DNA of 63,950 nt, the filler included, from Armatimonadota bacterium (GTDB lineage: Bacteria; Armatimonadota; Fimbriimonadia; Fimbriimonadales; Fimbriimonadaceae), in assembly GCA_031400935.1 (NCBI GenBank). It is 4 parts of 4 records of this genome, joined end to end, with 100 filler letters (N's around TTAATTAATTAA, not from the genome) between each part and the next. Parts side by side here need not be neighbours in the genome. Positions count along the whole stretch, not along the records: positions 60,217 to 63,950 come from JANNQV010000031.1; 3 more parts are not named here. The stretch is one strand, 5' to 3'. Position numbers and translations under genes: made by a program. Positions 60,217 to 63,950 of the stretch are shown here, piece after piece (position 1 is the stretch's first letter; each line of letters begins with the position of its first letter). Under the pieces are notes generated by a model, which saw nothing but the letters and a program-made list of their open reading frames with translations, was not told the origin of the DNA and ran no database searches.

Positions 60217-60720
60217 AGAAAGTACTTGCAGGCTTGCCAAATATATTCGGGTGCGAACGATCAGGTGGACTGGGTTTTACGAGAATGGGAATCAGTTCTT
60301 GATGGACTAGAAACCGACCCAATGGCGATGGGAGACCGAATTGACTGGGTTGCCAAATGGCAAATTGTCGAGATGTACCGAAGTGAAAACGGGCTCGAAT
60401 GGAGCGATGATGCGCTTCATTCCGTAGATTTGGAGTATCACAACATTGACCCCGAAAAAAGTCTTTTTTCGGCTTGGCGCCAAATGAACGATACCCAAAC
60501 CATGTGCAAAGAGCTTGAAATCCTCGACGCCATCACCGATCCGCCAACCGACACTCGCGCCTTCGCAAGAGGGAAATTGGTTGACTTTGTACTCTCCAAA
60601 CCCGCACAACGGTTCTATATGTTCGATTGGAACGGTGTGGCAGTCAATCGGCACTATTTTGTTGATTTGAGCAACCCGTTTGAGTCGTATGAGCACGAGA
60701 TTGAAGCATTGGGGACCTGA
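60217..60720 (+). CDS. Dop/PafA-family (Pup/UBact ligase or deamidase) C-terminal part
   Basis: W..VL..LETDP, DWVAK, DLEYH, DPPTDTRA..RG, DW, L.NPF. Confidence 0.88.
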   Translation, partial: RKYLQACQIYSGANDQVDWVLREWESVLDGLETDPMAMGDRIDWVAKWQIVEMYRSENGLEWSDDALHSVDLEYHNIDPEKSLFSAWRQMNDTQTMCKELEILDAITDPPTDTRAFARGKLVDFVLSKPAQRFYMFDWNGVAVNRHYFVDLSNPFESYEHEIEALGT

Positions 60721-60843
60721 TTTGATTCCATAATTGTCTCTCGTTTGCAGATCAGATTTCAATCTGCACTTTCCAATCAAGATTCCGTATACTTGATCCA
60801 TTGCTCGTTCAAATTAACGAGTTGGAGGTTTGAAACGGAAACA

Positions 60844-61662
60844 ATGACTTCGATGACTCCAGAGATGGAGTCCCTAAAGATACGGCTAAAAGCCACTTGG
60901 GAAGCGGGCGATTACGGGGTTTTTGCCACCTATCTGCTAACAGGAGCGCTTGAATTTTTCAAACGCTTGAATATTCCCTTAGGCACCACTTTGCTTGACG
61001 TTGGCTGCGGCGCAGGACAACTGACTATTCCGGCGGCCGAATCTGGAATTGATGTAACTGGAATTGACCTTGCCCAAAATCTGGTAGATCAAGCCAACGA
61101 GAAGCTCACTTCCAAAGGATTTCAACCCACCGTTCATCAAGGCGATGCTGAAAGCCTAGATTTTCCAGATGCATCGTTTGACACCGTAATGAGCCTAATT
61201 GGATCCATGTTTGCACCTCGACCAGAGCTTGTCGCTTCAGAAATAGTTCGAGTTTGCAAGCCCGGCGGACAAATCATCATGGGCAACTGGACTCCTGAAG
61301 GCCACATCGGGCAGATGTTCAAAGTGATAGGCAGCCACGTTCCACCGCCAGCCATCTTCCCTTCTCCGCTCCTTTGGGGCAAGGAAGATGTTGTTCGAGA
61401 GAGGTTTGGCGATTCAGTTACCGATCTTCAAATTACAAAGCGATCCTATCCATTCCGATATCCAATGCCACCATCTGGAGTTGTTGATTTCTTCATCGAA
61501 TACTACGGCCCAACTCTTCGAGCGTATGGTTCTTTATCTGATGAAGCAAAGCCCAATTTCAGAAACGATCTTATTGAGCTTTGGAGTCGAAACAATTTGG
61601 CGACTGATGGGGCGACCTATGTCGAAGCTGAGTACATTGAGGTCATTGGAATTCGAGCCTGA
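60844..61662 (+). CDS. Class I SAM-dependent methyltransferase
   Basis: LLDVGCGAG, GDAESL.F.D.SFD, RVCKPGG; GGAGG RBS. Confidence 0.92.
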   Translation: MTSMTPEMESLKIRLKATWEAGDYGVFATYLLTGALEFFKRLNIPLGTTLLDVGCGAGQLTIPAAESGIDVTGIDLAQNLVDQANEKLTSKGFQPTVHQGDAESLDFPDASFDTVMSLIGSMFAPRPELVASEIVRVCKPGGQIIMGNWTPEGHIGQMFKVIGSHVPPPAIFPSPLLWGKEDVVRERFGDSVTDLQITKRSYPFRYPMPPSGVVDFFIEYYGPTLRAYGSLSDEAKPNFRNDLIELWSRNNLATDGATYVEAEYIEVIGIRA

Positions 61663-61680
61663 TTCGGCAATACTTGAAAC

Positions 61681-62223
61681 ATGAGATGGCTCGTCACAGG
61701 ATTTGGTGCGTTCGAGGACGTTTCCGACAATGTAACGAGCCATGTCGCTCCATTGATGGGGGAGCCGTTTCATATTCTCGAAGTGTCCTACCAAGCGGTT
61801 GATGAGTTCCTGACATCCCTTGATCCAGAGTCCTTTGATGCTTTGCTCGCGTTGGGGCATGACAAAAGGGCAGATCGAATTCGAATCGAAACCCTGGGAC
61901 GAAATGTCATCGGCCCAAGACCAGACGTTCGAGGGTACTTGCCGCCTTCGCCGCAAACAGGATCAGACACAGTTCCAGCTTCCCTTTGGAATCTGATTGG
62001 CCTCCAAGATTGCGATCATTGGACAATTAGTGAAGATGCTGGGGACTACTTATGCAATTACATGCTTTATCAGGCATCGAAAACGTTTCCAAGTAAGTTG
62101 ATCGGCTTTTTACATTTGCCCCCAGCCGAAGTTGTTTCACTTGAAGAGCAATCGGCAGGGATTCGAGAACTCATGAATTTCGTACAGAGTGCGGTGGGCA
62201 CCAATTTGCAAACGCAGGGATAG
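61681..62223 (+). CDS. Pyroglutamyl peptidase I-like protein
   Basis: LVTGFGAF, IE, SEDAGDYLCNY, GFLHLP. Confidence 0.85.
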   Translation: MRWLVTGFGAFEDVSDNVTSHVAPLMGEPFHILEVSYQAVDEFLTSLDPESFDALLALGHDKRADRIRIETLGRNVIGPRPDVRGYLPPSPQTGSDTVPASLWNLIGLQDCDHWTISEDAGDYLCNYMLYQASKTFPSKLIGFLHLPPAEVVSLEEQSAGIRELMNFVQSAVGTNLQTQG

Positions 62224-62243
62224 TGGAATTTTGGATAGTAAAT

Positions 62244-63239
62244 CTAACGAAAACTAGCCCGGACTCCATTTGGGGACCACAAAACAATTTGCTTCCTGGA
62301 GCCTTCATTATTTGGATCGCCATCTACTAATTGATTCTTGCGATTCCAGTGAAGGCTCCAAGATTCATTGCTCTGATCCTCAGAAAGTCTCTGATTGAGA
62401 ACCCGTTTTTCATTCTTGGTATCAAAAACCCAAAGGCGTCCATATCCCTTTGCTTTGGCAGGATATGTGATTCCAAATCCTGCAAAATACCGACCTGTGG
62501 TAGATTCGGAGATAGATCTGTTCTCACCACTAACTTCGTCAATGACTTTCTCATCCAACCGGACCAGTTGGACTGAACCGCCTCAGCCACAGTCAGAGCC
62601 TGCAGAATACAAATAATAATGTGGTTTTGTTGGCCCGACATTGGCACCAGCTTTTCTCAGCTCCATTTCAGATATAGCGATGTCTGGATCTGTACCCCGC
62701 TCAATGTCCCGAACTACCAGCTTGATTCCTTTGTAAGCTCGCTTAGGAAGAGAAATCGAATGCCATCCCATTTTGTCGGATAGTAAAACTGTCTTGATGG
62801 GGTTTTCGTCACCAGTGTAGGTCCAATTCGAGTCATAGATGTCTATTTTGACAATTCTGGCGTTTCGAGAGAAGGTCGCTCGATCTTTATTGTAGCCATT
62901 CATGATTCGAATCTCATCCAATACAATGGGAGCTGTTCGAGTTAGATGAACCCAGCTACGTTCTTCTAGTGATCGGAGTTTCTTCGAGATAGTCTTTCCG
63001 TCAACCTCCTCCACGTTAACCGGATCGCCAAATGTGCCGCTAAACACCCATGCTGTTGAAGGATTCTTATCAAACATTAAAGGAATCGGATAGCTAGAAT
63101 GCCGCATTCCAAACCAAGATTCTTCTCCAGTCGAAACTTTCCAGCCTCCCCAAGAGGCGTTTGTGTGTTCGCCGTCCGCAAGGCAGGCACACGATATTGA
63201 CATTAGAATTGCAATTGGTAACCAACGAAAATTGGACAC
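62244..63239 (-). CDS. Secreted discoidin/glycan-binding-like protein with in-frame TGA at codon 219 (candidate selenoprotein, otherwise a nonsense allele)
   Basis: ORFs 62583-63239 and 62244-62558 share one frame: ...GSDCG[TGA]GGSVQLVRLDEK...; FDKNPSTAW, IRIMNGYNK..F..NAR, IAISEM motifs. Confidence 0.6.
62550..62577 (-). promoter_or_regulatory. Candidate bacterial SECIS element
   Basis: UGA-N10-UCCAACU[GGUCC]GGUUGGA hairpin with lower UUCA/UGAG stem and bulged G. Confidence 0.5.
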
Positions 63240-63311
63240 TTCAATTCTTGGGACGTATCACGCTGCTAATCGTGTTGCAATTTTCGCCCAGTTTAGGCTA
63301 ATATATCCTTC

Positions 63312-63410
63312 TTGCTCGGCAATTTACTGAACGCATACTCAATTTCTAACGGCACATTGGTGCCGTCGCGTTTGGTTGCCCGCCGTCGTAGCCGCCGCCC
63401 TCGTATCTAG
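63312..63410 (+). CDS. Arginine-rich leader peptide upstream of argF (start TTG 63312, or TTG/GTG 63357/63360)
   Basis: ...VPSRLVARRRSRRPRI*; 7 Arg in the last 13 codons. Confidence 0.6.
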   Translation: MLGNLLNAYSISNGTLVPSRLVARRRSRRPRI

Positions 63411-63468
63411 GGGGTTTGCCTTGGACGAGCCACGCACTTAGGTTCCCGCAAATCTCCTGCATTCTTTT
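63409..63468 (+). promoter_or_regulatory. Attenuator-like hairpin after the leader ORF
   Basis: AGGGGGTTTGC (63409-63419) pairs with GCAAATCTCCT (63448-63458), followed by gcattctttt. Confidence 0.5.
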
Positions 63469-63610
63469 GTTATCGGTTGTCAGTTGTCAGCGGTTGGCGG
63501 TTAGCTGTTGGCAGTTGCCGGAATCCGCTTCCCGCCTTCCGCACTTTCGTACAACCCATCAACTGACAACTGACACTAGCCCTAAACCCTAGACCCTAGA
63601 CCCCATACCC
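63469..63610. repeat. Mixed heptamer arrays (GTTGTCA / AACTGAC / AGACCCT)
   Basis: gttatcg gttgtca gttgtca ... aactgac aactgac ... aaaccct agaccct agacccc. Confidence 0.75.
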
Positions 63611-63620
63611 CGGAGCCCCC

Positions 63621-63950
63621 ATGGCATTACAAGATTATCAAAAACTCATAAACAGTCACCACAATCATCACGCTTCAATTGAACCTTCGAAGCCAAAGCA
63701 TATCCTAGCAGCATCTGACCTGAATGGCGAAGAAATTCGCTTAATTCTCGATACCGCAAAGTTCCTCAAGCGGCAACGAGCAAAAAACCCGCATATCGTC
63801 GCCCCGCTTGCAAACCGCATGATGGCAATGATCTTTGAAAAGCAATCGCTGAGAACCCGGGTTTCATTTGAAACAGGCTGGAACGAGCTTGGCGGGCATG
63901 CGATTTATCTGACCAAAAACGATATTGAAATGGGCAAGCGAGAGTCAATT
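63621..63950 (+). CDS. argF: Ornithine carbamoyltransferase (3' truncated; absent from ORF track)
   Basis: Translation gives MIFEKQSLRTRVSFE...LGGHAIYL...MGKRESI. Confidence 0.92.
   Translation, partial: MALQDYQKLINSHHNHHASIEPSKPKHILAASDLNGEEIRLILDTAKFLKRQRAKNPHIVAPLANRMMAMIFEKQSLRTRVSFETGWNELGGHAIYLTKNDIEMGKRESI

Follow-up and report, generated by a model that had tools for sequence, protein, structure and literature searches.

Gene, reading frame and authenticity of the TGA codon

The question raised by this locus is whether a TGA codon inside a long reading frame encodes selenocysteine (Sec), encodes another amino acid, or ends the protein. The frame lies at positions 62244..63239 on the minus strand of the window (the whole stretch of 63,950 nucleotides that was analyzed), within a contig of 3734 bases (C31 of G000, the genome studied; window positions 60217-63950). 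It comprised 331 codons between a GTG start and a TAG stop, and its sole in-frame TGA was codon 219 (62585-62583, YSAGSDCG*GGSV), as the first-pass annotation had reported. Homologs aligned across the TGA, which completed a Cys-Gly-Sec (CxU) motif at residues 217-219 (62583..62591, minus strand), where they carried either Cys or TGA. Recoding of this UGA as Sec was strongly supported by the comparative sequence evidence, and the gene showed every computable hallmark of a bacterial selenoprotein.

An assembly slip at the TGA was ruled out. The codon was spanned by X3, a contig of depth 3.2 that came from another study, and this contig carried TGA there, not TGC; its three listed differences all fell elsewhere in the gene. 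Contigs from two runs were identical to the gene across the TGA and were possibly its source.

The gene was flanked by a pyroglutamyl peptidase gene (61681-62223, plus strand; convergent) and an ornithine carbamoyltransferase gene (63621-63950, plus strand; divergent). This order, with both flanking genes, was repeated in G001 only, and apart from that synteny no neighbor family recurred among 78 ORFs at 22 loci. A scan for promoters and terminators gave results at chance level. Elsewhere in the window, the C-terminal part of a protein of the Pup-ligase family lay at the start of the same contig (60226-60720, plus strand), and a repetitive Gly/Ser/Thr-rich protein with no Pfam match was cut by a contig end (58575-60107, minus strand).

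Homologs and motif forms

The family was patchily distributed, occurring in 14 of 228 genomes of the class and 22 of 401 genomes of the phylum; a second phylum search of the same sample returned no further loci. Named homolog records came from Armatimonadetes, Fimbriimonas, Fimbriimonadia and Chthonomonadaceae, all of them Armatimonadota, from which the host is probably a member of the Fimbriimonadia. Six of the 14 genomes found in the class search carried TGA at the motif and eight carried Cys. In total, TGA was found at the motif in nine distinct DNA loci: eight genomes (G000, G001, G044, G360, G436, G467, G496 and G492) and one metagenome contig (L044). Neither TAA nor TAG occurred at the motif position at any DNA locus. 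The proposal that Sec stands in place of a conserved Cys was supported by Cys or TGA at the codon among homologs and by a hairpin confined to the TGA forms.

The TGA forms differed among themselves. The motif of G001 read D-C-U, one residue shorter than that of G000 (D-C-G-U-G), while in G492 (L083:1191-1240, G492:C56) both motif Cys codons were TGA, giving T-S-G-S-D-U-G-U-G-T-Q-W. Among 140 usable proteins, the motif was CxC in 60, CC in 12 and CxxC in one; 15 were truncated, 21 had one Cys and 31 had none. This set was obtained by leaving out the read-through of the gene itself (P0001), two unrelated long proteins (P0147 and P0149), 12 proteins lacking the motif region and three short ones. 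The family can do without the Cys pair, which was missing (one Cys or none) in 52 of the 140 homologs (~37%). Altogether, the family presented CxU, CU, UxU, CxC, CC, one-Cys and Cys-less forms. An acidic pattern was seen in 17 of 32 Cys-less proteins, a count made without a control.

Database proteins tended to end at the motif. Of 158 proteins, 13 broke off exactly where the second Cys would stand and two where the first would, and every other end position below 285 was represented by one protein each. DNA showed TGA for five of the 13 that ended at the second Cys; a third protein, P0159, ended before the first Cys. One GenBank member, HEY0866155.1, was stored cut at its TGA as a 'hypothetical protein' of 211 aa.

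Two candidates from the search for TGA loci were set aside: the L049/L050 match was in the wrong frame, and the TGA of G215 (L042) was the ordinary stop codon of a short paralog. Broken members were also present, with frameshifts or TAG/TAA stops (L027 in G436; L048/L071/L084-85 in G456; L028 in G194), and these may reflect assembly error or decay.

Hairpin downstream of the TGA codon

A hairpin behind the TGA had been described in the first-pass annotation, and ViennaRNA reproduced it, pairing positions 13-33 (counted from the U of UGA) through the stem UCCAACU/GGUUGGA with GGUC at positions 21-24. The UUCA/UGAG extension claimed for that stem was absent from the centroid structure. The loop cited for comparison, GGUC at positions 22-25 of Escherichia coli fdhF, was located on the annotated record. 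The candidate SECIS (register A; 62553..62573, minus strand) had a nine-pair stem with GGUCC at positions 21-25 and was the favored fold, with a pair probability of 1.00 and p = 0.023 against synonymous shuffles. An overlapping alternative (register B; 62550..62567, minus strand) had the loop GGUU at positions 26-29 and six of seven pairs in G000. A segment of 46 nt folded at -15.4 kcal/mol (z = -3.09), while the z-score over 81 nt was -0.10.

The bSECIS model, as outlined in PMC13188914, has a loop of 3-9 nt with a G in its first two positions, a distance of 16-37 nt from the UGA, a stem of 4-16 bp and a minimum free energy (MFE) of at most -7.5 kcal/mol. Hairpins were scanned with our own script, which was distinct from bSECISearch and combined the constraints of PMC13188914 with synonymous-codon shuffles as the null. 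By this script the gene's hairpin conformed to the model, with a spacing of 18, nine pairs and -9.9 kcal/mol. The MFE was -7.5 or lower in six of the nine TGA loci and between -6.3 and -7.2 in the other three. Hairpins beat the synonymous shuffles (p < 0.05) at seven of nine TGA loci, the exceptions being G360 (p = 0.28) and G467 (p = 0.20), and at none of the 12 Cys loci. By itself the hairpin does not settle the matter, because 42 of the 1146 ordinary TGA stops of the genome were also followed by one that fits the model at -7.5 kcal/mol or lower.

Codon use at the hairpin followed the TGA. The peptide VRSDG was common to G001, G492 and a Cys form (L043), and the pairing codons were found only in the TGA forms. 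Three loop registers occurred: positions 21-25 in G000, G044, G360 and G436; positions 23-27 in L044 and G496; and positions 26-29 in G001 and G492. Register B is thus the one used, with the loop GGUC, by the nearest relative G001 and by G492. In G000 either hairpin (21-25 or 26-29) can fold and the first is favored, which implies a shift of the SECIS between sister species. In G492 a single GGUC-loop hairpin suited both UGA codons by distance: the second stood 22 nt away and the first 28 nt, each within 16-37 nt.

Coding sequence beyond the TGA codon

The frame beyond the TGA remained open for 90-112 codons in seven of the eight TGA loci other than G492 and for about 100 codons in G492; in G436 a frameshift occurred seven codons past the TGA. 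Between G000 and G001, the 105 codons after the TGA were 50% identical (pN 0.335; pS 0.80, saturated), compared with pN 0.125 and pS 0.61 before it, so that pN/pS was 0.42 after and 0.20 before the TGA. By this comparison, coding sequence was conserved past the UGA.

The weaker selection past the TGA would also fit a true stop, which would be either a nonsense mutation or the programmed end of a short form consisting of the glycan-binding domain alone. A single base separates TGC or TGT from TGA, and the truncated product could fold, since short paralogs made up of the sandwich domain alone exist at six loci (L042, L051 and L053-L056), with a Cys directly after the signal peptide (AxA-C-D/E/G). 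Those paralogs, however, stopped about 17 codons ahead of the motif with a mixture of codons (three TGA, two TAG and one TAA), whereas the stop at the motif was TGA in all nine loci. The open frame past the TGA and the occurrence of hairpins behind TGA only also argue against termination, which is very unlikely.

Selenocysteine machinery and other Sec candidates

Genes for SelA, SelB and SelD and a tRNA-Sec were all found in the genome, as had been asked of it if the UGA encodes Sec. The tRNA-Sec scored 66 bits against the Rfam tRNA-Sec model, and selD itself contained one TGA. The SelB wing domain was present in 178 of 228 class genomes (a tally that takes in the unpublished G442), and co-occurrence with the machinery is therefore necessary but weak evidence. 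In one family, f4, the wing domain was seen in two of 29 genomes, and this family seems to be largely without the trait.

Among the eight genomes with TGA at the motif, tRNA-Sec was found in seven (the exception being G496, 88% complete) and selB in seven (the exception being G044, 94% complete); selA was found in all five tested. Across 25 family-bearing genomes, TGA occurred at the motif in five of 11 with tRNA-Sec and in none of 14 without it. These counts include kin, which are not independent of one another.

The same evidence bears on whether the UGA is read as Cys or Trp, through an alternative code or suppression. Homologs do have Cys at this position. Nevertheless, TGA ends 1146 long frames in the genome, the only tRNA with a UCA anticodon in its ARAGORN listing was tRNA-Sec, and SelA and SelD are present, all of which makes such a reading scarcely credible and the least probable of those considered.

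The Sec candidates seen in G000 were SelD and three envelope proteins; a Sec formate dehydrogenase was not seen, and none of five molybdopterin oxidoreductase matches had an internal stop. A DsbD (G000:C45, L088:94-2040, plus strand) carried UxxC (GYTUTNC) inside its thioredoxin domain. A signal-peptide protein (G000:C25, L087:102-1097, plus strand) carried a UxxC thioredoxin motif (YADWUGAC) with a GGU-loop hairpin; its N-terminal domain looked LolA-like by eye and had no family match. Of 18 genomes, 10 gave DsbD matches, with TGA in G000 and G001 and no stop in the other eight. G360, G467 and G496 had the Sec form of the family protein and DsbD matches without a stop. A coupled Sec relay with DsbD was rejected as a general arrangement, as Sec-DsbD was present in two of the 10 matched genomes.

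History of the Sec forms

A FastTree phylogeny of 134 rows, built with the motif excluded, required 13 changes to account for 18 Sec-labeled rows, and at least six of the 13 were forced by well-supported branches. The tree left out P0001, P0003, P0028, P0069, P0147, P0149 and rows shorter than 120 residues. Ten of the 18 Sec labels were assigned from truncation alone, and among these ten one belonged to the gene studied and one (P0115) duplicated G044. On these labels, Sec forms appear scattered over the tree. Gains of Sec are indistinguishable from losses because of the truncation-only labels, the unrooted tree and its many weak forks.

Predicted protein structure

An AlphaFold2 model built with 105 sequences had a pLDDT of 92.6 and a pTM of 0.89. 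A signal peptide was predicted at residues 1-21 (63177..63239, minus strand), with cleavage between A21 and D22. The signal peptide of the first-pass annotation held up in a pattern test: the protein passed, as did 75 of 105 aligned homologs, and N-terminal fragments made up many of the misses; in addition, A21 and D22 were conserved and residues 7-16 were helical in the model.

The discoidin-like domain that had been suggested was recovered as a beta-sandwich of the CBM32 / F5-8 type C (NADase-type glycan-binding, discoidin) kind at residues 29-199 (62643..63155, minus strand). It scored 31.7 bits against PF25302 (E 2e-7; cut-off 27) and 60.3 bits against NF047619 (cut-off 38), and the CBM32 fold was matched by 2j1a (Z 13.0, rmsd 2.8, 137 residues aligned).

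The C-terminal domain (residues 202-331; 62247..62636, minus strand), which would be made only if the UGA is read through, was predicted to be all-beta. It resembled a fragment, two to three blades long, of the closed ring of four-stranded blades that makes up a propeller of the WD40/TolB kind. Its profile matched WD40 proteins (E 7e-8) and TolB (E 1e-3), and modeled separately it had a pLDDT of 88.9. Propellers filled its list of structural matches (best Z 7.6, rmsd 4.7), and Foldseek gave no match to the C-terminal model at E <= 0.001. An ESM Atlas search with a Cys homolog (P0004) gave a best match of 0.88 to an F5/8C + PD40 cluster, which is a lead. In the model, C217 and U219 lay on a hairpin loop between strands 208-212 and 222-227, and they were the only Cys and Sec of the mature chain. 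No thioredoxin domain was matched in Pfam or NCBIfam, and the model was all-beta.

Possible functions of the Cys-x-Sec loop

Sec is very likely inserted at codon 219 by SelB acting on a hairpin 18-22 nt past the UGA. The protein is likely then exported and cleaved behind residue 21. The CBM32-like sandwich would bind a glycan of the cell envelope or the environment, or serve as a scaffold. The Cys-x-Sec loop, at the beginning of the propeller-like domain, would hold a soft metal ion of the Cu, Zn, Cd or Hg type through two exposed ligands; Se would raise the affinity of this site, and family members would tune it through CxC, CC, CU, CxU and UxU. Taken with all of its steps, this account of the function is put forward tentatively, at somewhat under an even chance.

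A metal site is favored because the spacing and number of ligands vary, a thioredoxin fold is absent, and CC and CU have been linked to metals elsewhere: Haft and Gwadz (bioRxiv 10.1101/2022.07.06.499078) argue in their preprint that these motifs, found also in exported SaoB, are a sign of contact with heavy metals. It is weakened by a neighborhood without metal genes (no metal-transport or resistance genes recurred among the 78 neighbor ORFs at the 22 loci) and by the many Cys-less homologs. Most characterized selenoproteins are redox enzymes according to PMC13188914, which also counts against it.

A thiol-redox site ranked close behind. The loop would alternate between a selenolthiol and a strained selenenylsulfide and would be recharged by the DsbD pathway. 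It would either reduce or isomerize a partner that the glycan-binding domain has captured, or turn binding on and off. The envelope thiol-redox proteins that accompany SelD among the Sec candidates (the UxxC DsbD and the UxxC thioredoxin) are in keeping with this. The CGC motif is described as redox-active in the bacilliredoxins BrxA/B (PMC8945050), and the review PMC13188914 expects redox proteins among most uncharacterized selenoproteins. Against it stand the lack of a thioredoxin fold, the occurrence of Sec-DsbD in only G000 and G001 of 10 matched genomes, and the spacing of CC, CxC and CxxC, which fits a fixed catalytic geometry poorly. Moreover, a diselenide formed by UxU is expected to resist reduction. 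A redox role is a real possibility, though a doubtful one.

Sec might also be inserted while the pair is only a structural bridge stapling the beta-hairpin of an exported binding protein, with near-neutral swaps between Cys and Sec and the machinery kept anyway. The frequent switching on the tree, the 52 of 140 homologs without the pair and the nearly class-wide machinery would all suit a bridge of this kind. Each switch to TGA, however, costs a hairpin within coding sequence, in at least three registers, and a cost without gain is hard to pay. CxC and CC bridges are also strained. A purely structural role is accordingly unlikely.

Under the favored metal-site reading, the U-G-U loop of G492 would receive two Sec residues from one hairpin and would act as a selenium metal clamp at the cell surface on a lectin fold, within a family marked by repeated Sec gain and loss, shifted SECIS registers and a natural series of CxC, CxU, CU and UxU. 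This is a possibility, to be held with more reserve than the metal site itself.

Comparison with known selenoproteins

Of the models in NCBIfam release 20, only NF047619 scored above its cut-off with eight family proteins, and no selenoprotein model did. The literature search returned no description of the family; the 2026 screen of Deng et al., in which 44,000 groundwater genomes were reportedly searched for new selenoprotein candidates, could hold it. Neither a discoidin or CBM domain nor UxU appears in Table 1 of the 119-family catalogue of 2026 (PMC13188914), and no mention of the family was found in the portions consulted of deep-Sep (PMC12013277), SelCysML (PMC13745706), BSepDB (PMC13326102) or Haft and Gwadz.

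The view that the protein matches no recognized selenoprotein family therefore stood, while the CxU motif, offered as part of that novelty, proved to be known elsewhere. Bacterial CxU/CU selenoproteins in Table 1 of PMC13188914 include rhodanese form 3 (NF041203), UshA-like (NF041198), SaoL, SaoB, HgcA and MbdU. As given there, these families share with the gene studied a UGA at a conserved Cys, an in-frame SECIS and a neighboring Cys, and SaoB is likewise exported with a CU. In contrast to them, the protein here had no match to their NCBIfam models, has another fold and is encoded outside any operon. Since other families already have CxU, what is new here is the scaffold together with the UxU form.

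Three further families were compared. The domain at residues 29-199 passed the cut-offs of both NF047619 and PF25302, as a NADase-type glycan-binding domain. Its best PDB sequence match was 7ji1 (E 3e-10), the translocation domain of a streptococcal NADase. The NADase catalytic domain was absent in Pfam searches, and so there was no sign of a toxin; among the papers searched, none described a selenoprotein with a NADase-type glycan-binding domain. DUF1573 (PF07610) is an exported beta-sandwich. Its motif is of the Cys-Gly-Cys type and also occurs with Sec, and bacilliredoxin shares the CGC motif. In the DUF1573 forms described, Sec comes first (UGC), whereas here it is mostly second (CGU) and takes both positions in G492; the studied protein had no PF07610 match in Pfam. 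Galactose oxidase (CBM32 plus a kelch propeller) had the same domain order and was the top Foldseek match (E 3e-8). It differed, however, in giving a TM-score of 0.34 and an rmsd of 14-18, in being matched over a propeller fragment only, and in length (639 residues versus 331), and there was no evidence of its copper-radical site in the studied protein.

Relative to the catalogues compared, both the selenoprotein family and its scaffold are new, and one member has UxU. It adds a family on a fold unlisted among the Sec proteins given in the 2026 catalogue, from a phylum whose selenium use has barely been described even though SelB was found in 178 of 228 class genomes, and databases store the family's Sec proteins cut short. 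Because CxC, CC, CxU, CU and UxU occur naturally on a single small, soluble scaffold, the long-standing question of the benefit of Sec over Cys can be tested directly, and with the UxU gene it can be tested whether a single bacterial SECIS serves two UGA codons six bases apart.
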